A stretch of 59,377 bases of DNA, filler included, from Dugesia japonica (lineage: Eukaryota), in assembly GCA_001938525.1 (NCBI GenBank). It is 6 parts of 6 records of this genome, joined end to end, with 100 filler letters (N's around TTAATTAATTAA, not from the genome) between each part and the next. Parts side by side here need not be neighbours in the genome. Positions count along the whole stretch, not along the records: positions 19,764 to 29,772 come from MQRL01616891.1; 5 more parts are not named here. One strand, given 5' to 3'. The notes beneath the pieces are model-generated. The model had not been told where the DNA came from. It saw nothing but the letters and a program-made list of their open reading frames with translations, and made no database searches. A program made the translations under genes and the position numbers. Of the stretch, positions 3,622 through 59,377 are shown in pieces; the first letter of the stretch is position 1, and each line of letters starts with the position of its first letter.

Positions 3622-4720
3622 TTGGCGATGGACGAGTACTCCGTACAATCTTTAGTAAAAGCATTCAAAATGCTTCTATGTCCAGATGAGATTGTACGAG
3701 ATGTGGCTAGCCATGATCTGATTATTGCTGCCACAAAACATTTAAAACGTTTCCGACTGTGCTCAATTGATGAAGCATTGAACTGGCTCTCCGTCAACAC
3801 CACTGATTCTAATCTCAAGTGTTGGTGGTTGAAGGTCTATGACGCAATCGCCTATCTTCATAAAATGGTTCACCTGCAGGAAAAGTTCAAGCGTAATGAG
3901 CTTGAAATTTGCATGCAAGTGATTGATTGCGTCGATGAAGGAAACTATTTGATTTCCATCAAAGACCATACAGCCATAACCAAACTGCTTCATCGTCTCC
4001 TCAATTGGGCTCATAAAAGAAAATGGAATGCCCTGACTAAAACTGGAGCAATTTCAACAGCTATCGGAGCGTCCACTTTATCTACAAAACCGCTATTCAA
4101 TGGCTCTTTTAAACCTGATGAATGGCGATTTATTCATAGAGCAAAGACTAGCACACTTCTGGTAGGTTGCAGCCATGGGATATCATTTAAATCCTGTCAG
4201 AAGTGTGGCTATCACTTGGAAACTCAGGCACATGTCCTGTGTCATTGCTCTCCTTTCTCGGCTTTTAATTCAGGACGACACAATGGTGTGCTTGAGTTGC
4301 TCGCCAGGTTTATTAGATCAAACACTTCCTTGAAAGTCATCGTAGATCAGGCCTGTGACCTGGTTAACATGACTGATCGCGTTGACTTGCAATTAATTAA
4401 TAGCGATGTCAAGCGCATTATATTACTGGATGTAAAAACTCCCTATGATACATCCAGTAATCTAAAATTAGCGAGGGACATTAATACCATAAAATACACG
4501 CCACTCAAAATGTACATTCAGAAAAACTAGCCAGCTTGAAAAGTCTCCCTTGAAACGATCTCAATTGGGTGTTTAGGATCGTGGTGTGTAGAGAATGAGC
4601 CTGTGCTCAAACAGGTTGGGCTCCGCCCTAGTACAATAAGAAAGTTTGCGCTTGTCTCGATCAGGAAATGCATATTCTGGTCGAGTAGAAATTGGAAATT
4701 CCACAACGGGAGGCTCGCAA
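3622..4720 (+). pseudogene. C-terminal CCHC zinc knuckle and restriction-like endonuclease of the non-LTR element
   Basis: ORF 3622-4530 contains WRFIHRAK, CxxC-ETxxHVLxHC, RHN and DVKTPYD; the terminal GCLGSW motif follows after a stop. Confidence 0.88.
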
Positions 4721-16307: not shown

Positions 16308-16601
16308 TATTAGTTTTATTTGTTTTCTTCATTTTAATCAATATTTATTTAAAAATATATTTTACAAATATAAAACTTTCAAATTAAAAATAATAAAACG
16401 ATAAAATCTAATTATTAAACTTTTAACTAAATATTTACATTTAAAAACTTTTGTAAATAAATATTTTTATAAAGTCTTACAATTAAATTTCAAATATACA
16501 TTTAAAAGTGTAAACTAATAAACATTGATTTGCATATAGACATTAAAACATTATTGCATTAAATTTTAAAAATATTTACAAATTTTTAAAATAACCTAAC
16601 A
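16308..16601. mobile_element. Solo LTR (T[A]TTAG...CTAACA family), TSD GAGAC/GAGAT
   Basis: Same termini as 32274-32620 and 54406-54767; 5-bp flanks differ by one base. Confidence 0.7.
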
Positions 16602-17749: not shown

Positions 17750-18844
17750 TTATTTTGTCATTCCTAAAAAATCCTGCATATGTCGTTTGAACTTTTTCAT
17801 TTGAAAGTAATATACAAAAATATTGACTGATTGTTGAATAAAAAAAAATTCCCAACCAATATCTGAAATATTGAATATTATAACTAAAGTATCTAAATAT
17901 TCTAGTGGTCGTTGATTAATTATTATTAAATACCATATATAAACTGAAATATGTGGAATGGATCCAAGAATGAATATGAATGATAAAATTAAAACAAAAA
18001 CAACAGATTTAATTTCTTTTCGTGTTTTATCAAAATTCGAGTTTTGAATTGATAAAATTAACAACCTTTTTGTGTTATGTTTAGATAGCCATAATTTGTA
18101 AATTAATAAAAAATTTGTTAAAATGATGCTAAATATCGGAACTAGTCCAGGTATAGTAAACGCTGTTCTTATAAATTGAACAATCTTTTCCAAATATGAA
18201 TTATTAAAATAATAATTACTACAGTCAAGCTTTCCACTAGTATTTTCTAATTTTGTAAAAATACAAATAAAACCAACAACTAATCCTGTAAAAATGTAAA
18301 TGAATCCCACTATTATTTTTGCGAAATTTCCTCCATATTTCATCATTTTGATTGGAAAAAATATTGCTAAACATCGATCAATACAAATTCCTAAAAATAT
18401 ATAAAATCCAACTGAAACTGTATACATATAAGCAAAGCGATATACGATACATGACGTGGTATTTATATATTTGATAAACAAATATAATTTCCCATTTGTA
18501 GCATATGGCAAGCCTTTGGCTACAAAACACCATAACCATCCATAAGACAATAAATACCCGATATCTGTAATTGATAACCCTATTAATAATATATTTTGTC
18601 TATTTCGTCGTTTATATTTTAATGAAAATATATAAATAATAATTACGTTGCTAAAAATGCCAAAAGTTCCAATAAATGGAAATGCATATGAAGACCAAAT
18701 ACCCATTATTTGACTAAGAATACATAGAGTATTAAACAAAGAAATATTCGTTTCGTTTTTAGTGGCTTCTTCACATGCATAAAGTAAATCATAAGGAGTG
18801 TCTAATAAAGGAAATTTGTCTCTAAGAACAGAAAATGAAAACAT
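17750..18844 (-). CDS. Intronless orphan rhodopsin-family (class A) GPCR, flatworm-expanded peptide-receptor-like type
   Basis: Intact 364-aa ORF with seven hydrophobic segments; GxxxN in TM1 (GIFSN), LSITD in TM2, DRC at the end of TM3 (CIDRCLAIFFP), IP in TM6, NIFVY in TM7; KGLPYATNG in ECL1. Confidence 0.92.
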   Translation of the reverse strand: MFSFSVLRDKFPLLDTPYDLLYACEEATKNETNISLFNTLCILSQIMGIWSSYAFPFIGTFGIFSNVIIIYIFSLKYKRRNRQNILLIGLSITDIGYLLSYGWLWCFVAKGLPYATNGKLYLFIKYINTTSCIVYRFAYMYTVSVGFYIFLGICIDRCLAIFFPIKMMKYGGNFAKIIVGFIYIFTGLVVGFICIFTKLENTSGKLDCSNYYFNNSYLEKIVQFIRTAFTIPGLVPIFSIILTNFLLIYKLWLSKHNTKRLLILSIQNSNFDKTRKEIKSVVFVLILSFIFILGSIPHISVYIWYLIIINQRPLEYLDTLVIIFNISDIGWEFFFIQQSVNIFVYYFQMKKFKRHMQDFLGMTK

Positions 18845-19769: not shown

Positions 19770-20961
19770 AAATTGCACTCCCAATACCCTAAGTTCGATT
19801 AGTTTTCGACACATAGGGCATTCATTTAAATTTTAAGCGCAGCTGTAACTGGTTTTGAAGTTTCCACATGGAAGAAAAATAACTTCGATAGTTTCCTCCA
19901 GGCATATGGCACAGTCGTTATCCAATAATGCCCGTTCTTGTTTGTATTATTTTTGCAGCTCTTCTAATTTGAGTGATCGTTGGTATAATTCGTGTGGTGT
20001 GATTAATTCAGTCCCTTTCTCTGTGACCGTTTGTTTTATTAGTTAGTTGATATTTCCTTTCTTTAGCTTTAGTGTATTATTCAGCCTACTTGCCTGCAGT
20101 TCTACTGCCATTTCTATTCGGTTGAAAGACATATTCCATTCAATTCTGCAAGCTGTTGCTATTAATTCTTCCTCACCGATTGGCTGTACTCTGGAACATT
20201 TTGGTTGATGGAACATCGCCTTTGATAACTTCTTTACTTCTTTTAATAACGTGGTTTCTCGTTTACAGGTAGTGTATTTAATTACTTTGTCGTTAGTTTG
20301 TTGAACGAGGTATAATCCGTCCATTGCTTTCTCTTTCAGGCCTGGTATTTCCTGGAAAGTTTTTTCTCTAGCTTCGACATTCCATTCAAGATCATCTGGT
20401 AATGTCACTTCTGCTAGATTCTTTATGATTTTGCAATATAATTTTTTCAGTTGCAGTGTTGTTTTCTCAGTTTCTGGGTTTCTACCTTTGGTTGGCTGAG
20501 TTTTATTATTCACTTCTAGGTTTTGCAAGAAAAGAACAGATAGGAAACCATTTCTTGTGGGCTCTATTGGGTTTCTAGTTTCTCCCCCATTTGCACAGGT
20601 TGCCTTGGCAGTATATGCATTTCACCTTGTCTAGACGTTCTTGAGTACCGGCGAAATAAAATCCAGATCTGGCTATACCCTCAATGAGTCTATGTAGATG
20701 CTTTGGTAACTCGAATAAGGATTTTCTTCGCATACCTTCATCACAATATNTATTGTCAAACACTTTCATCGCACTATACCACACTTTCCGTCGTATAAAA
20801 TTTTCAGGTGCTCCAACGCTATTATGATAATACATTATGTTTTGCACTATTCTGATTTGCTTAATTTCATCTCGTCCTTGGCTCATGCAATGTAATTCAA
20901 TATATGGGTCATTCATTTTGATTCTGGCCTCGCTTATTGATAGTTCCAGATTAAATTCCAT
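19770..20961 (-). pseudogene. IAP-like protein: BIR domain, helical/coiled linker and C-terminal RING
   Basis: BIR: EGMRRKSL...IARSGFYFAG...DKVKCIYCQGNLCKWGRN*KPNRAHKKWFPICSFL. RING (19805-19915): CAICLEETIEVIFLPCGNFKTSYSCA*NLNECPMCRK. Stops, one frameshift and two ligand substitutions. Confidence 0.9.
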
Positions 20962-21179
20962 TATCTACAATTATAGGTACGGTTGATTCTAGTTATAGTA
21001 TTATTTATTTACATTAATTTTAATTAGTCGTTTATTTACCGTTTTTTTAAAGATTACTTGCGTATATAAATAGTTCCTAGTAGATATTTATGTATATAGT
21101 TTATATATTTCAGTATATAGTTTTTATATATATTTTATTTTATCATATTTTTGTCATATATATATATTTTTTAACTTCT

Positions 21180-21815
21180 GCTCTCCCTTAGATTTCAGAC
21201 AAAGCTGACTTGGATGTGAGCACTCCGGGTCTTGAGTGTCTCAATTTCCCACTTTTGTGAGTTTAAGGTAGTTAAGTTCTCTCGACTGATCAGAGATCAG
21301 ATCGTGTTGTTTAGCTGTTAACTCCATTGCGTAATTTTGTTTTTCTGTGGTAATTTCCAACATTCGTCGATTTTCTATTATTTGTTGTCGACACATAAGG
21401 GTTTCTGCATATAAATTCTCGTTTTGAAGTTGTAGGATTTTATTTTTAAATTCCAGCTCGCACCAATCTAGGGGATTTATAGTTATTAGGGTTTGTATAA
21501 ATTGATTTTGACTGTGCTCCAGTTCTTCTAATCGTTGTTGAGTCCATTGAGTTTTGATTTTAGCGCTATTCCATAATTCTTTCATTTCCTCATTATGATT
21601 TCTCCATATTTCATTGATCGTCACTTGTGAACAGATAATGTTATATTATTTATTGATGTGATACTTCCTGCAGGACTACTACATATGTCGCCTTGTGAGT
21701 CCATTAACTCATTCTCACCCATACTGGAATAGTCATTTTCATTTTCGATCTGACTCATTTTGTCTGAATAAGAGAGCTTTATTAATACCACAATTATAAT
21801 TACACGTTTATACAT
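21180..21815 (-). pseudogene. Coiled-coil accessory protein of the retroelement (frameshifted at ~21622)
   Basis: ORFs 21621-21815 and 21241-21624 overlap by 4 nt; heptad-rich Q/E/L/K sequence. Confidence 0.5.
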
Positions 21816-21868: not shown

Positions 21869-22683
21869 TTAACAGGTCATTATCCCCGGTGCCTGATAGG
21901 GTCTAGGCACATATGTGGGTAATCCGTTTGATATCATCCCCAGTGGTAATAATTCGTAATTTTGTGGGGCTACTGGTAGGTGTCGTCTTTTCCCTTTCCG
22001 ACTATGTTTCTTTCGTTTGGGTTTTGTTTGCTTACAGAATTGCACATATAGTGTGATTAATATCAGTACCGCTATTAATACACTCCCTACTATCATTATA
22101 TGGTCTGTTCCTTTTTTGGTTGGTTTAATGGTAACGATTGGTTCTTTCATTGAAGTAGGCCCATCCCATATCATCATCTGATCTTCCTTTGGCTGGTAAT
22201 TCCTCAGGTTTAACATTAAATTGTTTAGGAAGTTTGTTTTTTTGTTTTTTTCCCTCATTGGCCGCCGTAGTTGGTTTTTGAGTTTCCGTTATTGTGGTTT
22301 TCTCTGTGGTAGTTGTAGTACTTATTTTAACCTTTGGTTTAGTATTGTTCAGTTTTATTCTTATATCCCGATTTATAACTGTGGTGAATTCCATTTCCCA
22401 CATTTCCGGTCCAAAGCTACCCATGTTCACTCCTTGTTCTTGTAATGCATTTTCTTTGAATCCTGATATTTTTTCATTATACGCCCATCCCCATTGAGCG
22501 AGTGAATAGTATTTCTGTGCCGTTAATTGTTCCTTTTTTTCGTTAATCCGTAATTGATATGTGTTGTTCATTTTTCTGATCCGTACAGGTCCTGGACCTT
22601 CCTGCCAACGAGAACCCCATTTTCCAAACGTGTATTCGGTTATCGAGTGGAATCCTTTTCCCCGATTAATGGCTATACTTTTT
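21869..22683 (-). pseudogene. Type-I membrane protein with Thr-rich mucin-like stalk, TM helix and basic cytoplasmic tail (5' part lost in the N gap)
   Basis: STTTTTEKTTITETQKPTT stalk; TM IMIVGSVLIAVLILITLYVQFC followed by KQTKPKRKKHSRKGKRR; tail motifs YELL and LPTY; frameshift near 22250. Confidence 0.65.
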
Positions 22684-22760
22684 NNNNNNNNNNNNNNNNN
22701 NNNNNNNNNNNNNNNNNNNNNNNNNNNNNNNNNNNNNNNNNNNNNNNNNNNNNNNNNNNN

Positions 22761-23230
22761 GCTTTTACTATTGCCATGATTTCGCGTTCGGTTGTGCTAT
22801 AATTTAGTTCAGCTCCTTGAAATTTCTTGCTGAAATAAGCGATCACTCTCTCTCTTCCCTGTTCATCCAATTGGCTTAATATGGCACCCATCGCGTATCC
22901 ACTAGCGTCAGTGGCTAATATAAATGGTTTCTTGAAATTCGGATGCACCAAAATTGGTGCAGTTAATAATTTTTCCCGTAATGTCTCAAATGATTGTTGT
23001 TGTTCCGGCCCCCATATAAAGGCAGTATCTTGTTTGACCAATTCTTGCATGGGTTTTGAGATTTTTGCGAAATCTTTGATAAATTTGAGGTAATAGTTTG
23101 CGAGTCCTAAAAACTCCTGTATTTTGAGTACACAATTACGGGGTTCTAGGTTTCTGATTTTCTCAGTGTTTCTTGGATCTGGCTCCTTCCCTTTATTTGA
23201 TATTAAATGACCTCAATATGTCACTTTTTT
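22761..23230 (-). pseudogene. Gypsy RT connection domain and RNase H (truncated by the N gap)
   Basis: QEFLGLANYYLKFIKDFAKI; WGPEQQQSFETLREKLLTAPILVHPNFKKPFILATDASGYAMGAILSQ...YSTTEREIMAIV. Confidence 0.95.
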
Positions 23231-23800
23231 CTAGGCCCATTTGCATTTGGTAGGTTTCACTTTCAAGTTCCATTTTTGTAACCTTATAAACACATTACGC
23301 AAGTCATTAAGATGTCCTTGAAATGTTGGCGAATAGATTAATAGATCATCAATATAGGCCATACATTGAGATATACCGTGAGTTACATAATTCATCATTC
23401 GTTGAAAAGAGGCTGGTGCATTAGTAAGCCCGAATGGCATACGGATAAATTGGTATAAGTCTTTGCCTGTGGAAAAGGCTGTTTTCTCTCTGTCTTCTGG
23501 TTTAATTTGTATTTGCCAATAACTGCTTCGCAAGTCCAGTGTGGTGAATATTTTGGCGTTACAGGGTAACTGTAATAATTCATTGATGTCCGGCAGCGGA
23601 TATGTATCTTTTTTAGTTTGTGCATTTAATCTTCTGTAATCGATACAGAATCGCTGTGTCCCATTTTTCTATCGACTATTACCACTGGTGACTGCCATGT
23701 AGAGCAGCTAGGTTCGATCACACCGATTTTCACTAATTTAGCCGTTTCTTTATTTGCAAACTCTTTTTTCTCCACTGTCATGGCATATGGCTTCTGTTTG
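23231..23800 (-). pseudogene. Ty3/Gypsy reverse transcriptase
   Basis: CIDYRRLN, YPLPDI, LDLRSSYWQI, KTAFST, MPFGLTNAPASFQR, YIDD (23345-23356), KCKW; frameshift near 23665 and a stop at 23231. Confidence 0.96.
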
Positions 23801-24009
23801 CTTGGGGTTTCGTCCGTTAGTTGATTTGTGTGCATTGTAGCTATGCACATACCTAGTTCTTCATCAGTCCATGCAAAATTATCTCTAAACTCCTCCAGCA
23901 TTTGTAGTATTGTCTGTTTCTGATCATCCGACAAAGTTTCTGTCTCTACTTTAAATGTTCTATCTATTTCCAGTTCGGCGATTGTTTCCTCTATCAAGTC
24001 AAGTTCTGG

Positions 24010-24270
24010 TTCAATGGGAGTTAGTGTACCTATTCTAGAATTTGGTTTGATTGTGATATCTTTTTCGGTGAAGTTGACTAAACTAACTGGTACTTCTCCA
24101 CTTTTGTTGACTGTGATTATTCCTCCTGCTGTAGGTAACTCGTACTGTTGTGCAAATCCATCGTACGGTTCAAAATAACAATCTCCTTCGTATGCACTTT
24201 TGGTACTGACTACACAATATGCTTGGCATCTATTAGGTACCAAGATTTCTTTCGTAGTGAATACTTCGTG
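24010..24270 (-). other. dUTPase-like beta fold between protease and RT (catalytic motifs absent)
   Basis: EILVPNRCQAYCVV...GGIITVNKSGEVPVSLVNFTEKDITIKPNSRIGTL follows the V.N...I.I..G.RIG.L dUTPase-fold pattern common in animal Gypsy pol. Confidence 0.55.
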
Positions 24271-24329
24271 ATCTTTCACATGGGTATACCCTTCCAAGGA
24301 TTGCAATTGTAATTTGGAGAAGTTAAATA

Positions 24330-24630
24330 TACCATTCTTCATCAAAATTGGAAGAATGTCCGTACCCAAAATGCGCTGTCCAGCCATTTCGACTATTATC
24401 ATTTTGTGTTTGATTTTGTTGTCCTGATATTCTACGTCACAAGCTAATTCCCCAAAAATTTTAAGACTGCTTCCGTTTGCCACATCGGCTGTAGTGTTAG
24501 TGGGTAATATGTTTTTATATTCTGTTATCGCGATTTCTTCTATTGATAACAATGAGATTGTTGCTCCTGTGTCTAATAAAGCTGTTGTGGGTCTACCATT
24601 GATTTTAACCATAATTGTTAATACGGGTCC
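24330..24630 (-). CDS. Retropepsin aspartic protease domain 2
   Basis: VKINGRPTTALLDTGATISLL...VANGSSLKIFG...RILGTDIL within ORF 23626-25437. Confidence 0.93.
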
Positions 24631-24949
24631 GCCGTTGAGACTTGCGCATACTAACTCCGAAAGGTCACAATTGGGGTTGAGTTGTTTTCTGTCTTTCCAC
24701 CTTAGTTTTCGTTCTTGGAATCTTATCCAATCGTTCGTTATCATGGAGGCTGTATTGGTAATTTTCCGACGAGCTTGATTTAAGTTATTTTGTTCACCTC
24801 TGCCTGATGAGAGTTGCTGCTGCTGGTTAGGTGTTGAATGATTCCACCGCTGTGGTCGTTTCTGTTTGGTTATTATTCGAGTTTTCTGATACCCTGCTGG
24901 TGCATATTCTTGATCGTAGTTTTCCCGTATTGTTAGTTTCCTCAAATAT

Positions 24950-25260
24950 AATATTCCATCCGGGCATAGGCGTGGTAAGAGGTCCAGTCCTAATAAGCAG
25001 TAAAATGTTAATTCATTCATTATTTGTAATTTATGCCAAAGACGGATTCCGTCGCTTTCTATCGCACATATTGCTTCCCTAACAGGTGAGATTTTTTCTC
25101 CAGAGGCCGTGATGATAACTCCTTTAGTTATTGTTATTCTGAGTAGTCGATAATCTTCTAATATTTTTTTGTGGACTAACGTCGTACTTGTTCCCGTATC
25201 GATAATGGCTATTACCCATCTTCCGTCTATTTTTATCCTTTTTTGTAATAGTTTCGCTCT
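24950..25260 (-). CDS. Retropepsin aspartic protease domain 1
   Basis: IKIDGRWVIAIIDTGTSTTLV...ITASGEKI...CLLGLDLL within ORF 23626-25437. Confidence 0.9.
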
Positions 25261-25449
25261 CTGAGAAATCATCATACATACGGTTTGGGTTTCTAACTTA
25301 TCAATTTCAGTGATCTGGTTATTCGGAGAGCACAAGTTTTGGTCAGTCACTCTTCGATCAATAGTCGATAAATTGCTCTCTGTTAATAATACCATATTAG
25401 GAGCTTGTGGTGGACTCATATATGGGTTGTTGTACATGGGGCCTGGTGC

Positions 25450-27765
25450 TCATACCTGTTGTGGTTGTGGATTCATGGGTTGCCACCCATGTTGTGGATA
25501 AGCATCATAATACATTTGTGCTGGTGCTGCTGTATTTTCGTTTCCTCCGAATTTTAACGCGTTTCTCAGTCGTTGCATTTTGCTGATTTTTTCGTATTGT
25601 TGTCTTTTATACTCCGCATTGTATTCCATGGCGGTTTTATAACTGGGTACATGTAGTGTTCCTCTGCTTTCTCCTCTATCTTCGTCGCTGCTGCTATTAC
25701 TTTCATCTTTGTTCTTAAATCTTTCTTTGAATTGGCTGAAATACGATATTTTCTGTTTAGCATTGCTCATTTCTTCACACAATAACCTAAGTTGCATTAT
25801 GACCTCCTTGTTCAATCCTCTTATTTGTCCTTTTTTCCATATAAATCGTTTTACCCTGTCAATGTCTTTGGAGTGGCTATTAAGCACCATGGTTTGGGCT
25901 GAGAATGGGAAGATACCGGTTACCATTTTCCAATTCACTTTTTTTTCTCTTTTATATATGTCAAAACATGCAAACAATTGAGTAATCACTACTCGTGTTA
26001 CTGAAATTATCAGCATCACTCCCAGTAATCCTGCCATTGCTTGGCCATATATTATGAATCTTCCCCCCATTTTCCGCATGACATTTTCAGTAGCTTTCTG
26101 GAAATGATCGACCGACAAGAGCGCATTGTAATTTACACGCCAGTCTATATTGGTTCCACTAGTTAATTACACTATATTTGATAGGATTTGCATCCTTCGG
26201 ACTGGAAACAGCATTTATTCCCTAGCCTTCTCTAGATCTTCCCTGCTATAGATTCCTCCTTTATTTATATCAATTGGGGTGAATTACATACCTCCATTTA
26301 ATTGTAACATTGAGAATTTCCGCGGTTTGACTCCCACTGCCATTCGTTGGGGAAATCTTATCCATGAACCATCTTTCATTATGTATTGTGATCCAAATAC
26401 ATTAGAGCAAATTTATGATATTTGGTCTATAACCCAAAGGGGATATTATTCGAGTAATTGGTTGTACGTAACGTTTCTCATTGTTATGTATGATTTCTAT
26501 TTCATTATAGCAAAGTTTTGGGTTAGATAAAAACTCTGCTTTGCATTTGTATAGGTACATTACTTCTCCTACGACTCGACCAAATTGACCTTTTTCCAGC
26601 TGAAGTAAGTGGGTGACACAATCTGGGTTCGTAACTGCCATTGCTAACTTTGTCTTTAGTATTTCCTTATTCAACGTACAGTCATTCTGGATCAGATCGT
26701 GGTACATTCGTCCGATGGTATCCTGCATTCGATGGAATAAATTGTCCATTTTATTATTGGCATTTAGATTTAGTTTGATATCTTGTGACATTACTGCTGC
26801 CTGCGCCGTTTTTATTCGATGTTTTGACACGAATATTCTTTTATAGTTCGTTTTATACACTATTTGTGCACATTTTGACATGGAATTTCCTTTGATTAAT
26901 CGGATGGTCTCATCCTAGCACCGTGGGGGTTGTATGCCATTGTTGGTAGTATGATTTTGGACCTGATCTTATCGTTTATTTAAAATTATTTATCCTATCT
27001 TTTAGATTACCCTCTTTTGGGGCTTGATCAATAGGTACTATAGCTCGTTGCCCTTGGTATTCATTGAACATAGCCTCTTTTAGATGCGCCAACTTGCAAT
27101 CCTTGTGATCTACTTTGTATGTCAATGTTGATGTAACTGTATTACATGATCCATCCGCTGCTTTGCAGTATGACCTTCCTTTCATGGTCACATCCTGAGC
27201 ATAAAAAAATGCTTCATATTCCTTGAGTTCTACGGTGTAGGTTTCGATTGCTACCGCATACTGCCATACTTTTCCTCGTATAGTGTATGTACCATATTCG
27301 CTGTTACCTTTGTGTGAGGATATACTTCCTGCTGCTTCTATTGGCTGGTCGACTATATATCCCTTTTTGGCGATAACTTGAGTCCCGTGTTTGATGGTAA
27401 TTTTACCTGTCGTAAATCTTTCGTCGCATTGTTGTCCCATTAGATGTACAGGATGTCTCACTGTTCCTGGATCAATTATCGAGGTATAACTGTGATAACC
27501 ACAATGAAATATAAATGTCTTTACCGTTACTGTACATTCACGTACTTGGGCCTTATAATAATCCGACTCCTGGTACAAGTGGTAAATAGAATTATTACGG
27601 GAGTGAGATTTTCTCCGGGTTCGCGTCTGGACATTCTTCAGTATCCACTAAGGAGAATACTTCTTTTCCTACTTGCATCTCATCGCAGTCATATGTCAAT
27701 ATGGCTTCACTTCTGCCCATCATTAAGAATAGTAAGAGTATTGTAGTTTTTAATGCTTGCCATGA
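25450..27765 (-). pseudogene. Chuvirus-type (class III) envelope fusion glycoprotein with signal peptide, TM anchor and long cytoplasmic tail
   Basis: Signal peptide QALKTTILLLFLMMGRSEA then ILTYDC...FSLVDTEEC; VRECTVTVKTFIFHCGYHS; MYHDLIQNDCTLNKEILKTKLAMAVTNPD; GEVMYLYKC; CYNEIEI..N.KRYVQPITRII; GIYSREDLEKARE*MLFP; TM FIIYGQAMAGLLGVMLIISV. Several frameshifts and stops. Confidence 0.85.
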
Positions 27766-27830
27766 ATTTCGGCGAGGCCCACGTGCCCATCCATTCTCGA
27801 TCTCATTTAACTGATCCCGAATAATCCTGA

Positions 27831-28925
27831 TTACTGATTTTCATAAGAAGGCTGAGGCTTAGGGCATATGGCCTCAATAAACTTTTTCCATCCCCCATGC
27901 TGCTTTATCAATGGCACTATTTTGCTCTGCATTAGATCCACTATCGGTAATTTACTGAGGATGAAGTTTTTTGACGGCTTGCTTCTAGCAATTGATAGAT
28001 GTGTTTGTTTAATCAAATGGGCTATGGATACTGCTATCCTCCCTTTCGTTGGCTGATCCTGTAACAATTCATCCCTTACCCCTTCCAGGTTATCCCTTGT
28101 GCCATGGCTAGTACCTTTAGTGGCAGGAAATTTCCTAATGGCTGCTTCTATTTCTTTTGCTAGTGGTCTGAGACNNNNNGATAGTTGAAATTTCCCAATC
28201 CATATTTTTAGTTCTGGATATAACATTAGCAATAACTGCCGTATTACCACTTCGGTTGGCATATCATCATCCGTTGAATTTTCGTGGTATTTCTCTTGTG
28301 ATACCGTTGCTAATCGCTTATTTTGATGGTTTATGGATGTTGCTAATCGTCTCTGTTTTAATGCTTCTTCTTCTTCCGGATTTCCTGGGGGTTTTGTTCT
28401 TGGTCGGCCTCTATTACGAGGTTCAGTAACTGTTTCTGCATCCACTGTGGTGCTTACTGGTTTTGGGGGCACTTCTTCCTCTTCTGTCTCTATAGGATTT
28501 TCCATTTCTAAGGGGTGGTTTGTATCCATTAAATCGTCTATGACTGAAGATGGCAATTCTTTTGCTATTCTACTCAATATTGGTGATAATGGTTGTTCCT
28601 CTAATACATCTTCTTCGTCTAAGTCTACCTTGCTAGGATCATATTTCTTGCTTCGGGTGGGCTCTTTAGCTTTCATTTCCTCGCTTTTTCTAGTTGGAGG
28701 TGAGTATCTTGTGATTTGTAATTCATTCTTATCTTCTGTTAACTCGTCTGCTGATGGAGATCCGAATATTTTACGTTCCCAATCTTGGCTTGTTTTAGGA
28801 GTTTCTTTTGTTTCTCGGGAAGCTTCTGTACTTTCTGATTGATCGGTTGTAGGTCTTAATATTTGGCTAGCCGCTAATTGTGTACGGTTTTTATATGCTT
28901 TTAACATACCTGAGGTCTCTCCCAT
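27831..28925 (-). CDS. Acidic low-complexity region with AT-hook, followed by a Bcl-2-like domain
   Basis: AT-hook RNRGRPR (~28397-28418); BH3-like LRPLAKEIE; BH1-like VRDELLQDQPTKGRIAV; BH2-like LIKQHGGWKKFIE. Confidence 0.78.
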   Translation of the reverse strand: MGETSGMLKAYKNRTQLAASQILRPTTDQSESTEASRETKETPKTSQDWERKIFGSPSADELTEDKNELQITRYSPPTRKSEEMKAKEPTRSKKYDPSKVDLDEEDVLEEQPLSPILSRIAKELPSSVIDDLMDTNHPLEMENPIETEEEEVPPKPVSTTVDAETVTEPRNRGRPRTKPPGNPEEEEALKQRRLATSINHQNKRLATVSQEKYHENSTDDDMPTEVVIRQLLLMLYPELKIWIGKFQLXXXLRPLAKEIEAAIRKFPATKGTSHGTRDNLEGVRDELLQDQPTKGRIAVSIAHLIKQTHLSIARSKPSKNFILSKLPIVDLMQSKIVPLIKQHGGWKKFIEAICPKPQPSYENQ

Positions 28926-28982
28926 TATTGGTCTTGTTTTGTCTGCTGCCTTATAAGGGCCTGCGTCTTTTCGAGTGAGGGT

Positions 28983-29197
28983 ACCTCCTAATTCTGCTAA
29001 AATCCATGGCGTATTAGGTTTAACTAAATCTATTTCATTAGTCCAATTGGGGTGGTATCTTCCACTATTTCATCTTCGTTCAAAAGTTTGTATGGTGGCT
29101 TAAATGGTAGCTTTTCTCGCAGGTGCTTTATTGTATTATATACTAGTATCTTAATCGTGATTTTGTCTCCCTCTGGATCGATTATTCTGAATTTGAC
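28983..29197 (-). pseudogene. Ubiquitin/SUMO-like domain ending in di-glycine
   Basis: VKFRIIDPEGDKITIKILVYNTIKHLREKL...YKLLNEDEIVEDTTPIGL(frameshift ~29040)NEIDLVKPNTPWILAELGG; the GG-bearing frame continues into ORF 27831-28925. Confidence 0.6.
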
Positions 29198-29637
29198 TTC
29201 TAATGGGGTGGTCTGTCCCATCTCCGCTTTTTGCCATTTAACCAGAATTTTATTAAACTGAATATGATCCCATACATGGCATACTTTGATGGCCAGGATT
29301 AACCGTCGCAACTTTCTGAGATCTTCTACTGCCAGATCTTGTTGTAAGACTATATTGCATCGTCATATGATTTCCGGATTTATTAACTTATCGCCTACTA
29401 ACAATTCGAATAATTTTAGCAAATTGTCTTCCGGCTTCTCACCTTTGATTGGGTTGTTAGTCAGAGCTACTACCATCTCTACTCGTTGTTTACTTTGTTC
29501 TTGTTTCGGGAGTTTGGCTCTGGCGAATACTAGTGGGTGTATCTCTTCTATGTAATATTCCACTACTTCTCTAGCTTCCTGCTTCCATTTCTCCTCCGAC
29601 ACCCGTAGTCGTCGTCTCTCCTCATCCTTTGCTGTTA

Positions 29638-29772
29638 TGTTGGGGTGAAACACCGGATTAAGGCAAATATTATGGCGTAGGTAAACACGAAATTTAAAAA
29701 ATCTACATAAAAAAAGAAAATGAAGAATTCGGATCCAAGAAGGGCATAGTCAAGTTAGAGAGAAGAATTACG
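29638..29772. mobile_element. LTR-like terminus TGTTGGGGTGAAACACC interrupting the polyprotein (nested insertion)
   Basis: The same 17-nt terminus occurs at 41471; coding potential stops abruptly at this point. Confidence 0.65.
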
Positions 29773-29872: not shown

Positions 29873-30534
29873 TGATCTTCTATGTTCAGTACTCTCTCTA
29901 AAATTATATCGGGATCCTTGATTATCTATGATTGTTTATTTGGTTGATTCGCAGATTGATTGGTTTATCTTGATTTATTTGATATTTGGAATATTGATTG
30001 TTTTGATTTCTGAAATTAAATAATATGGCCCTACGGCTTCTGCAAGCATTCAAATATTATTATCGCATTCATTAATTGACTACTTTTATCTACTTTTATC
30101 AACCGATTGATACCTCTATTGATTGATAATATCTACCAATTACTACACTATGATACATTACCATACTTTATTTCTATTACTTTAGCATCGCATTTACTTC
30201 ATTTGCTTTTATCACTCAATTGTTTATTATACATAAGCAGCAATTTTATTTATTTATGTCAACTGAAATACCATTTTCAATATTTTGCTGTTTTGAAAAA
30301 GTTCATCTCAGATTATTAATTCCTATTATAAATCGTATAATTTAACAGCTTAAAATGCTCTTGGACTCAAGTTCCACGAAATCATTAACCCTCAAATAGT
30401 GTAGATTTTCTGGATGTGTTTTTGACACATTACTCCAACAGACTCCATTAATTCATTTCGTATTTCATTACATTTGGTTCCTCCGTTGAGCTCATGACTC
30501 CTTTACTCATTAATAAATTTTATTCATTTCTCAT

Positions 30535-30960
30535 GGAACATTTCCGCCTGCTCCTGACAAACTTTCATCGATGAAAGCTCTTTAATTTACTGAAAGCCTC
30601 AAATATCTCACCATATAATTGATTAACTCATTGTTTTTACTTTTACTCGACATTTCGCATTATAATATTTCCGCCTAATCCCGACAATTTGTCTTTCGGA
30701 CAAATTTCACAATTAATCAATACTCACTTTATCTCCATTTCATTTCCCCTAATAGAACAATCCAGCCTGTTCCTGGCAATTCATCTTCCGAATTAACTTT
30801 TATAACTAATTGACGATCAATTTATTTCGACTTCATATCTTACGTTGGGACAATCTCACCTGTTCCTGGCAGTTTATCCTCCGGATAAACTTTTACTATT
30901 AATCAACAATCACTTTATTTTATTTCCCTTTTACGTTGAAACAATTCCGCCTGTTTATAC
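30535..30960. repeat. Degenerate ~90-125-bp tandem units with core CCGCCTGTTCCTG(A/G)CAA
   Basis: Cores at ~30544, 30671, 30762, 30856 and 30947. Confidence 0.7.
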
Positions 30961-32273
30961 CCCTGATTATTTTTTCACAACTAATCAATGAATAAATTAT
31001 CTCCACTTTGCATTGTTCATTTGTAGGACTATTTACTCAATTTCGACACTGTTCCTTTTTCCTTTAAATTATTTAAATTACTAATTTGTCGGCTATACCT
31101 TTCCCTTCACCACTTTACATTAGTACTCCTGAATTATCAACAATGGAACTCTTGCGCTGGTTCCTGGTGAATTCCCTTGTGACATGTTTTGTAAGTTCAA
31201 AGCTCCTCCTCCATAATAATTATCAATAAAATTCTCCTCAACTAATACGATTTAACTATACCTTCGGATAATTTTATTATTTCTTTCGATTTAACTATAC
31301 ACTTGGATAGTTTTATCATTTCCGACCAGGTTTTCCTTAGTTCTCTTCTCGGTGGCCAACCGACAAAGTATCCGGAACGAATTAGTGGTAATTAACTCAC
31401 TACTCCAATATTTGCTTCAATAAATTTGATTAAATTTCGTTATCATCTCTCCTTCAAATAAATTTCAACCTTTTTCTTGCTAGTATATTTGCTTTGAACA
31501 CTCTCTCTATGTAGCCGGTAGTCCATTTCAGCTCCAGATGGGCGACAATTTCGATCCTCAATTAACAATAATACTTTAATATCTCAATACTTGAGTTAGT
31601 TGACAGTCTATTTCAAATTCAGCTCTAACCAGGATGTTTTACCCTCAATCTAAAAGTCTGTATAGCTACGGGTAGTTAGCTGTAATGAGTGAGTGTCAAG
31701 GCGCACTCACGCCAACCGAACGCCATAAGTGGTCAGCTTAATAGATGCGATGCTCCCTCGTTTATTCCCCTGGAATTCCTGAGTTGATCTCGCTTGGACT
31801 AAACTCCATTCTCCCGGCGTAGAAGTCAGACAAAGTATCCAACTTCCGAGATCGTTACTCCTTATCCGAAGCGTCGAAGTCCGTTCCAGCATATCCACGG
31901 AAGATTTTCTACTCCACCAATACTTCGAAGATTTCTGTCCCTAGGTCAATAACAATTTCAATCATTTCAGTCATTAGACGATCATTGCAGCTGTCCCTTC
32001 AAAGCTGAACAGGCTTCTAGTTCTAGCTTCCTTATCGCGGACCCTATTTTCCAAAATGACATCCACCATTACGACATCGTTTCCTTGGGTTCTTTCACAT
32101 ATCTATGGTTACGCTAGAAATTTTCTTTCTTCTGATTACTATGATAAAACTCTCCCACAAAATTAGATCTAAATTCAAAATTAATTAACTCATATGAAAC
32201 TCTCTTTTCAAACACGATTGTCATCAATTACTTCCAAACATGTACTTATTATTTTCTCCAATATTATCCTCAT

Positions 32274-32620
32274 TGTTAGTTTTATTAGTTTTTTTCTTCA
32301 TTTAAATCAACTAAAACAAGACTTTTAATTCAATACTTTATTTCAATTACAATTAATTCTTCTTTGAAATTCTTCTTTTTTTTTGAATGTTTCTTTCAAA
32401 ATTTGCTTTTCCCAATTTATATTTTTAAATAATAATACATATAAACAAATTTATTATATTGACTAAAAATATATTTTACAAATATTTCGAATTTATATTT
32501 TAAAAATTTCAACGAATTAATATTAATTTTCAAATTTCATTAAAAAATTTAAACTAATAAATAAAAACCTTATTGAATTAAATTTTAAAAATATTTACAA
32601 ATTTTTAAAATGAGCTAACA
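32274..32620. mobile_element. Solo LTR, TGTTAG...CTAACA, perfect 5-bp TSD CTCAT
   Basis: TG...CA ends with a 6-bp terminal inverted repeat; CTCAT at 32269-32273 and 32621-32625; close homolog at 54406-54767. Confidence 0.88.
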
Positions 32621-32895
32621 CTCATTATTTTATTATTGTTTTATATGGCTCCGTAACCATAGAACCCAATTGTTACACCTCGTCCCCATCTCCGTTCATT
32701 TGTCTATCGAATTCTTGGTTACCACTCACCTGGCTGGCCTCCCTTTGTTGACTGTCCGATACCCATCCTGCACTTCTTGATCAGGTATAGCAATTTCTTC
32801 TCCAAATAAATTTCATTGATTAATCCCATTTTATTATTTCATCTCATTTGTTGCCTCTACTTCTCTATAAATTTATTAGTCTCTTGTTAGTATCA

Positions 32896-53800: not shown

Positions 53801-54405
53801 TTTGCTACACATAATGATATGTTGCTCCATTAATTTGATCAAGCTTTTGTGTTGGTGCCTGCTATGTTTAAGCCTGTCACTCAAAATTTGAAACCACTGA
53901 AGTGGAATTAAACAAAAAAAAACGTTTTTCTTAAAGTAATAATTTTTATTTATTCGATTTTCTAAAAATCAAAACATAAATAGGAAATATTACACGAGCA
54001 AATATAAATATTTCAATAATAATAATATCAGAATATTACTTTAAATTATCTAATCTATCTCTACATATAAATTTATCTTCATAAATAATATAAATTTATC
54101 TTCATAAATTATATATATTTATTTATATATTTATTTATAATATATTTTTTTAATAATAATAATTTTAAATAAATGTAAAATAATAATAAATTACATTTTA
54201 AACATTTAATTAAATAATATAATAACAATATAAAATTTAATAATAATAACTATAATACTAATTACCATTTACTAGTGATTATAAGTTATTGTCAATATTC
54301 CTATAATAATAATTATTATTTTACTCTTATAATAATAATTTTATTTTCTAATAATAATTATTAAAAAATTATTTTGTTGTAATTTACATAAATTACTTTT
54401 GTAAT

Positions 54406-54767
54406 TGTTAGTTTTATTAGTTTTCTTCTTCATTTAAATCAACTAAAATAAGACTTTTGTTTCAATACTTTGTTTAAAATACAAATAATTTTTCTTTGAA
54501 ATTCTTCTTGCTTTTTTGAATGCTTCTTTATAAACTTACCTTTCCCAATTTATATTTTTGAATAAATAATAAATTTAAACAAATTTATAATATTTATTAA
54601 AAATATATTTTTTTAAATCTAAAACTTCGAATTTACAGTAATTCAAAAAATAAAGCAATAAATTTTAATAATTAAAATTTTTTACTAATTGTTTACATTA
54701 AAAAATTTAAACTAATAATAGTGCATTAAATTTTAAAATATTTGCAAATTTTTAAAATTACCTAACA
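54406..54767. mobile_element. Solo LTR (TGTTAG...CTAACA family)
   Basis: Colinear with 32274-32620; the flanks GTAAT/ATTAT do not form a clean TSD. Confidence 0.75.
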
Positions 54768-54789
54768 ATTATAATATCCCTTTATTATA

Positions 54790-58160: not shown

Positions 58161-59377
58161 TTAGAAAACACTTTCTTCGTTGCATTTTTGACACTTGAGA
58201 ATGTTTGTATTATATGCTGAAATTTGATGGTAATGCGGAACCATGTTATCGTTATCGTTTGATTCATCTTTTGATAACGATTCATCCGACGAAATAACGT
58301 TTATAGGTTTGACACAATGAGGGTTTGAAATTTCATATGACCAATTTGAATCGGAATTTTTCTGGTATTTTAGACAATCCTTTGATTTTCTATTCGATGT
58401 CAATACGATGAACAATTGCATAAATAGTTCAAACATTTCTACAATACTAATCATAGTTAAACCAATCCAAATACTACACAGACCTCCGATTTGACTGAGA
58501 AATGATGTCAATGATAGAACTTCTTTTTCTTCGACTTTATGCAAATTGAAATTCGGTTTACTAATGAGAATAGCTAATAGATTTCTTTCGAGAATATTGG
58601 TTTGATCAAGAATCTTTGAAGCATCTCTTATTTTACCGTCCTTTATTAATTTTTTTATTTTTCTATATGGTTCAAATTCTGGTTTTTGTATCAATTTGTT
58701 TTCTTTGAAAACTTTATTTCCTAATAGAGATAATTGGTAAGATTTCGTTGGCCACATAGAGGTTGATCTATCACTTTCATAGGATAAAAATGAGCATGGC
58801 ATAGTACAATTTTCAATATAATCTCTATAATAGCGTCTCGTTATTTGTTCTTTACATCGCATATTTTTNACAATATTTTCTAAAATACTGACACAAGTGG
58901 AATTATTTGATGATGAATCCAGTAAACATTCGTTTTTATTAATAAATGATAAACCTGGACTACAAAATGGCAAGCGGCTTGTATTATATGGATATTCAAT
59001 AGCTACACATTTGCATTCTCGTTCAATATCGATTTGAATAGTTGCTTGCTTACATCCTTTTTCCGAATAAACAAATTCTTTATCGAACATTCGCAATCGT
59101 CTCGGAGTGTTTGATGAACAGCGCCCATAGGGTGGTGCTATTCTTATGTTCTCAAATGTCTTCAATCGTATCTCTGTTAAAGTTCCCGGCATTAAACTGA
59201 TGCTTTTTTCATTTATATTAGAAAATGTTTCCGGCCTATCGATGGCTAAGACTGCTCCTGACAATTGAGATTTTATATCATAACGATTACAATCAAGGCA
59301 ATTTATTTCATGCATATCTTCTTCCAAATATAAATACATTTCCATTGTTTTGGTTGTGTTTCGATATTCTGTTTTCA
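58161..59377 (-). CDS. DEG/ENaC (amiloride-sensitive sodium channel family) subunit, 3' part; the frame stays open beyond the window end
   Basis: ISLMPGTLTEI, PPYGRC, YSEKGC...CKC, Cys-rich thumb, CTMPC..LSY, WPT, TM2 LTSFLSQIGGLCSIWIGLTMISIVEMFE; no introns over ~1.2 kb. Confidence 0.93.
   Translation of the reverse strand, partial: KTEYRNTTKTMEMYLYLEEDMHEINCLDCNRYDIKSQLSGAVLAIDRPETFSNINEKSISLMPGTLTEIRLKTFENIRIAPPYGRCSSNTPRRLRMFDKEFVYSEKGCKQATIQIDIERECKCVAIEYPYNTSRLPFCSPGLSFINKNECLLDSSSNNSTCVSILENIXKNMRCKEQITRRYYRDYIENCTMPCSFLSYESDRSTSMWPTKSYQLSLLGNKVFKENKLIQKPEFEPYRKIKKLIKDGKIRDASKILDQTNILERNLLAILISKPNFNLHKVEEKEVLSLTSFLSQIGGLCSIWIGLTMISIVEMFELFMQLFIVLTSNRKSKDCLKYQKNSDSNWSYEISNPHCVKPINVISSDESLSKDESNDNDNMVPHYHQISAYNTNILKCQKCNEESVF

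Follow-up and report, generated by a model that had tools for sequence, protein, structure and literature searches.

A Bcl-2-like domain ahead of the envelope gene in a decayed, probably Burro-like retroelement of the planarian Dugesia japonica

The stretch of DNA analysed here (the window; 59,377 nucleotides) consists of six joined parts of the Dugesia japonica genome assembly GCA_001938525.1. One of them, contig MQRL01616891.1 (19764-29772, with runs of N and 100-base spacers at both ends), carries a broken copy of a retroelement in which a Bcl-2-like domain lies directly ahead of an envelope gene (env). The domain sits at the end of a stop-to-stop open reading frame (ORF) of 412 amino acids (27834-29069, minus strand). 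The domain and the features bordering it towards env are as follows:

27864-28259, minus strand: Bcl-2-like domain (Pfam PF00452, ESM Atlas, Foldseek and VIA rows, third-position bias)
27831-27840, minus strand: frameshift plus stop, separating the Bcl-2-like domain from env (three-frame translation)
27703-27780, minus strand: predicted internal signal peptide of env (by eye and hydropathy)

Segments resembling the Bcl-2 homology (BH) motifs BH3, BH1 and BH2 share one minus-strand frame and follow each other in the Bcl-2 family's order. The BH3-like LRPLAKEIE starts at 28172, the BH1-like DELLQDQPTKGRIAV starts at 28073 and the BH2-like IKQHGGWKKF has its GGW at 27896, with 49 residues between the BH1 Gly and the first BH2 Gly; the ordered and spaced segments of the sequence-only reading are thereby borne out. 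The killers of the family have a Gly-Asp pattern in BH3; at this place the BH3-like segment of the domain reads Ala-Lys. A short run of N stands immediately ahead of that segment and is crossed without gaps by one of the three contig pieces of other copies listed. The family order is BH4, BH3, BH1, BH2 (PMC8998228), and a first helix, beginning at 28259, is predicted at the place expected for BH4, a region without a match in the PF00452 profile search. At BH1 the canonical NWGR has become TKGR, so that Gly and Arg are kept and Asn and Trp are lost. In BH3 ligands, the Asp is contacted by this Gly and Arg (PMC9027176). The proposal that such divergence has a viral counterpart holds for orf virus ORFV125, which has SPGR at BH1, likewise keeping G-R and replacing N-W, and whose binding to the Puma BH3 is weaker by about 250-fold (PMC9027176).

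The best Pfam match of the domain is PF00452 (E 0.035-0.091, 13.8-15.1 bits, profile positions 15-100 of 100). Given that the curated cut-off of this family is 31.4 bits, the domain is filed as Bcl-2-like and not as a Pfam member. The ESM Atlas gave a score of 0.90 toward Bcl-2. All 35 listed Foldseek rows belong to the Bcl-2 family, namely to cellular Bcl-xL and Bcl-2, but none is significant, and the structure models are of low confidence (pLDDT 46 and 50). A loosened BH1 plus BH2 pattern, tuned to admit the domain sequence, which biases the test in its favour, occurred once in the 118,750 six-frame residues of the window. Shuffling the ORF 200,000 times and the domain 200,000 times never produced it, and 273,140 residues from unrelated viral loci did not contain it either. 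The PF00452 score lies under the family cut-off, and no single search reaches significance. The lines of evidence (Pfam, ESM Atlas, Foldseek and motif shuffles) are each weak; together they suggest that the domain is very probably of Bcl-2 ancestry. The likeness seen in the sequence-only reading is supported as Bcl-2 ancestry, with Pfam, ESM Atlas and Foldseek naming one family, while the profile and structure checks it had proposed each came out in part, the former returning the Bcl-2 family short of its cut-off and the latter naming it throughout without significance or a confident model.

Compared with cellular members (PF00452; Bcl-xL, Bcl-2, Bax, Bak and those of schistosomes and Hydra), the domain has the same BH3-BH1-BH2 order, the helical pattern and the common GGW, whereas NWGR is reduced to GR, BH3 is without Gly-Asp, and there is neither an intron at GGW nor a neighbouring C-terminal membrane helix. 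Viral homologues, such as ORFV125, KsBcl-2 of Kaposi's sarcoma-associated herpesvirus, A179L of African swine fever virus and the poxvirus M11L group, are described as combining divergent BH motifs with a Bcl-2 scaffold (PMC9027176; PMC11209288; PMC5691641). They are, however, carried by DNA viruses as free-standing genes, and BH3 binding has been demonstrated for many of them, whereas the domain in the window belongs to a retroelement polyprotein, is without a tail anchor of its own and is known here from sequence alone. Passages of PMC11410931 and PMC11209288 gave no information on the domain.

The element belongs to a many-copy family, with 17,057 and 4,030 contig pieces from public runs aligning to it and 1,417, 1,944 and 479 pieces aligning to the 601 bases around the domain. 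Differences within the domain frame were taken from 40 of 120 rows listed. Since third codon positions hold 19 of the 26 differences listed (first positions 4, second positions 3; p 4e-5), the domain frame was, on this codon-position evidence, under purifying selection. Second-position differences near BH1 (28033 and 28075) are present in nearly all of the aligned depth, so the motifs of the copy in the window include private changes. There was no sign of expression of this copy, three RNA runs giving 35, 3 and 2 partial reads, none at 95% identity.

The domain frame ends in a stop at 27831-27833 and env goes on in another frame, with a frameshift near 27836. The sequence-only reading had placed the domain within a retroelement polyprotein; the retroelement setting stands, by its Pfam neighbours, but here the frameshift splits the domain from env, and the phrase would apply to the element family and not to the copy in the window. 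The junction varies in length among other copies: of the six bridging pieces listed, three have a length that keeps the two frames in register and three do not. At the stop between env and protease, nearly all of the aligned depth differs from the copy in the window. Both observations are consistent with an ancestor with one polyprotein, although they are no proof of it.

Behind the junction, the candidate signal peptide begins with basic residues. Its hydrophobic core is short, the best mean being 2.88 over 9 residues (at 27741) and 1.35 over 19, and small residues come ahead of the first ectodomain cysteine. The domain's own frame is without a strong membrane segment (best 19-residue mean 1.26). 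Given that the signal core is short and lies about 45-50 residues past BH2, in another frame in the copy studied, the idea that the env signal peptide serves as membrane tether of the Bcl-2-like domain may be held only tentatively.

On either side of the domain and its junction, the contig bears the following parts:

29201-29749, minus strand: upstream coding segment, with an in-frame stop at 29363-29365
29033-29200, minus strand: candidate SUMO/ubiquitin-like segment (by eye and by position as in Burro elements)
28281-29069, minus strand: low-complexity linker (composition)
25453-27702, minus strand: env, encoding an HSV/gB-type fusion glycoprotein and broken into several pieces (Pfam PF24664)
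23629-25449, minus strand: protease and dUTPase-like region (Pfam)
23234-23668, minus strand: reverse transcriptase, broken (Pfam PF00078, E 3.5e-30)
22761-23212, minus strand: RNase H, interrupted by an assembly gap (Pfam PF17919, E 4.4e-33)
20527-20694, minus strand: BIR domain with one in-frame stop (PF00653, E 1.4e-13, stop read as X)
19794-19922, minus strand: RING finger, end of an IAP-like gene, with one internal in-frame stop (PF13920, E 4e-11, stops read as X)

The window is AT-rich animal DNA; the contig is about 10 kb long and has a GC content of 0.38 versus 0.27 for the rest of the window. The domain, env, proteases, dUTPase-like domain, reverse transcriptase, RNase H, BIR and RING all lie on one strand, and all genes of this copy are interrupted by stops or frameshifts. 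The env pieces match PF24664 with E values of 3.5e-4, 2.7e-21, 1.2e-23 and 3.7e-20, and hydropathy places a membrane helix at 26040-25984, followed by a cytoplasmic tail. Two tandem aspartyl-protease domains, at about 25257-24967 and at 24615-24352 (PF13975, E 4.8e-15, two stretches), each have a DTG motif, and the pair (24352-25257, minus strand) sits between env and the dUTPase-like domain (24183-24022; PF00692, E 1.3e-4). Neither an integrase behind RNase H nor an HHCC pattern on the element strand of the contig was seen, self-BLAST gave no pair of long terminal repeats (LTRs), and gag, MATH and ankyrin repeats were not seen on the 10-kb contig, which is cut by its ends.

Upstream of the domain, hydrophobic residues make up only 20.5% of the linker, and an AT-hook core, RGRP, is found at 28412-28401. 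The acidic disordered region with an AT-hook that had been proposed here is upheld in its RGRP core and low complexity; acidity, however, is confined to about 28710-28410 (11 D/E versus 2-9 K/R per 40 residues), and a profile search gave no Pfam match for AT-hook or linker. The SUMO-like candidate connects to the linker across a frameshift and had no match in Pfam or the Protein Data Bank (PDB). For the segment at 29201-29749, a death-effector-like appearance by eye was dropped, with no usable match in Pfam, PDB or Atlas.

On the 3' side of the element, the IAP-like gene (19794-20964, minus strand) comprises BIR, a coiled segment and RING, with stops and frame changes; the Bcl-2-like domain and this gene make two anti-death modules within one element. 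Past the gap in RNase H, at 21872-22796 (minus strand), a Thr/Lys-rich stretch is followed by a strong membrane helix (19-residue mean 2.89 at 22099) with a tail of basic residues; this could be where a second surface protein ends. Between this piece and the IAP-like gene lies a coiled-coil-like frame of 134 residues (21244-21645, minus strand), for which no convincing Pfam match was found.

This organization recalls Burro/GYPSM1, giant gypsy-like LTR retrotransposons found in planarians of the Dugesiidae (Arkhipova and Yushenova, 2019; PMC6431247, which also cites Jurka, 2007). As described there, Burro elements exceed 30 kb, with long LTRs and ankyrin domains, and have an ORF of 4,873 amino acids encoding gag, MATH, Ubi2/SUMO-like, BCL2, env, protease, dUTPase, reverse transcriptase, RNase H and integrase, in addition to BIR; the BCL2-like motif is credited to Grohme 2018, and D. 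japonica is reported to have decayed fragments that contain stops and frameshifts (PMC6431247). The element in the window matches the Burro order of BCL2-like motif, env, protease, dUTPase, reverse transcriptase and RNase H on one strand. In both, the BCL2-like motif comes directly before an env that resembles the fusion proteins of mononegaviruses, env itself lies after the gag side and before pol, protease and reverse transcriptase flank dUTPase, and BIR is present. The element differs in its two tandem proteases, as against the one protease named for Burro (PMC6431247), and it is broken and bounded by its contig; it is likened to Burro by published description. In all likelihood, it is a Ty3/gypsy retroelement of Burro-like type that carries an envelope gene, present here as a decayed copy. 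The layout with BCL2 before env has already been published for Burro elements of planarians.

Similarly, among the errantiviruses of Platyhelminthes, the six Schmidtea elements Smed_errantivirus_1-6 have a GAG-ENV-POL order with an HSV/gB-type env (eLife, 2026; PMC13524379) and share with the element a gB-type env ahead of pol. By hand count, 60 of 125 ungapped env residues are identical to those of Smed_errantivirus_5, including a common 13-residue run, IETYTVELKEYEA. About half of the env residues differ, and the element therefore represents another family or species. The main text of PMC13524379 has no occurrence of 'Bcl', 'Burro' or 'apoptosis' and its seven supplementary files have none of 'Bcl', so this source is silent on whether the Smed errantiviruses carry the domain.

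Elsewhere in the window, a GC-richer, strongly skewed, non-coding region past the spacer (30400-32200), in which about 92 bases are imperfectly repeated at 30673-30955, could be an LTR-like piece. Site-specific non-LTR elements end in a CCHC motif and a restriction-like endonuclease, and by eye an ORF of 300 amino acids at 3628-4530 (plus strand) has a CCHC knuckle and the look of such an endonuclease, with no Pfam match. Host sequences include an intronless rhodopsin-family G-protein-coupled receptor gene (17750-18844, minus strand, 364 amino acids; PF00001, E 1.3e-13). The C-terminal part of a DEG/ENaC channel lies at 58161-59375 (minus strand; PF00858, E 1.1e-32), FaNaC being the nearest solved structures. 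An AT-rich dispersed repeat is present at 32272-32636 and 54404-54788 (78.5% alike), and part of a third copy lies near 16350-16600.

Concerning function, we favour with some reserve, on the motifs described above, that in intact copies the domain acts as a pro-survival decoy for the host's death-promoting Bcl-2 relatives. Planarians possess a Bak/Bcl-2/cytochrome c pathway (PMC8998228). Intact copies would make domain, env and pol as a single polyprotein, of which the internal signal peptide would thread env into the endoplasmic reticulum (ER) and be cut, leaving the Bcl-2 domain in the cytosol at the C-terminus of the upstream product, either tied to the ER by the signal core or released by the element's protease. 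The BH1 Gly-Arg would then grip the Asp of host BH3 motifs, and with Ala-Lys in place of Gly-Asp in its own BH3-like segment the domain would absorb death signals and not send them. Together with the BIR-RING gene, apoptosis would be blocked at two levels and cells hosting replication would be spared. It can further be speculated that a captured Bcl-2 reuses the env signal peptide as its tail anchor, is ER-tethered in one cut and is paired with an IAP in the stem or germ cells of planarians; we find this combination somewhat unlikely.

The main rival to the pro-survival decoy is a protein of Bcl-2 fold that acts outside apoptosis and blocks innate-immune or stress signalling via another surface, like vaccinia A52, B14 and K7; A52 and B14 are described as Bcl-2-like, non-apoptotic signalling inhibitors (PMC5691641). 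Poxvirus Bcl-2-like clusters among the Atlas rows (one of them, scoring 0.86, has PF06227 on 23%), the degenerate BH1 and BH3, and the MATH/TRAF and ubiquitin-like domains that Burro also carries (PMC6431247) speak for such an inhibitor, but BH1 retains Gly-Arg and BH2 retains GGW at the spacing seen in BH3-binding members, the rows listed by Foldseek belong to cellular Bcl-xL and Bcl-2, and a BIR-RING gene lies in the same element, and we judge this alternative unlikely. The kept groove residues bear also on a Bcl-2-derived folded spacer or scaffold for polyprotein processing or particle assembly, without a host target. Deep sequence divergence would suit a spacer, and frame selection is expected for any piece of a single polyprotein; yet the surviving residues (BH1 Gly-Arg and BH2 GGW) belong to the BH3-binding groove and not to the core only, and the flanking low-complexity linker could already act as a spacer, which makes this role improbable.

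A pro-apoptotic or toxin-like addiction module, in which a Bax/Bak-like killer is checked by the element's IAP or gives lytic aid to particle release, would draw on the same pairing of modules, but the Ala-Lys of the BH3-like segment, where Gly-Asp would be expected, renders it distinctly improbable. That the likeness is due to chance, in some other helical domain with two short look-alike motifs, would accord with every search being individually non-significant and with bare WGR...GGW pairs in 13 of the 120 phage loci from the pattern scan. Nevertheless, Pfam, Atlas, Foldseek and the Burro literature on the same position name one family and the motif pair appeared in none of the 200,000 shuffles, so that chance is very improbable indeed.

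Given that the domain and its place were previously reported, the copy in the window adds little as a discovery. The 2019 review rated the role of the Burro BCL2 worthy of experimental confirmation (PMC6431247), and no paper with an experimental test of Bcl-2 function in such elements was found in the literature within reach, which leaves out subscription journals and Grohme 2018. What is added is sequence evidence: a frame that was under purifying selection, in a family whose divergence from the nearest named Schmidtea element is about one half, and groove residues that survive. If the pro-survival decoy holds true, a retroelement would steer host cell death like DNA viruses do, in an animal that needs controlled apoptosis to regenerate. 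If the tail anchor and its pairing with the IAP were also true, this would be a retroelement that blocks cell death with the tools of large DNA viruses and possibly has a part in host cell survival.
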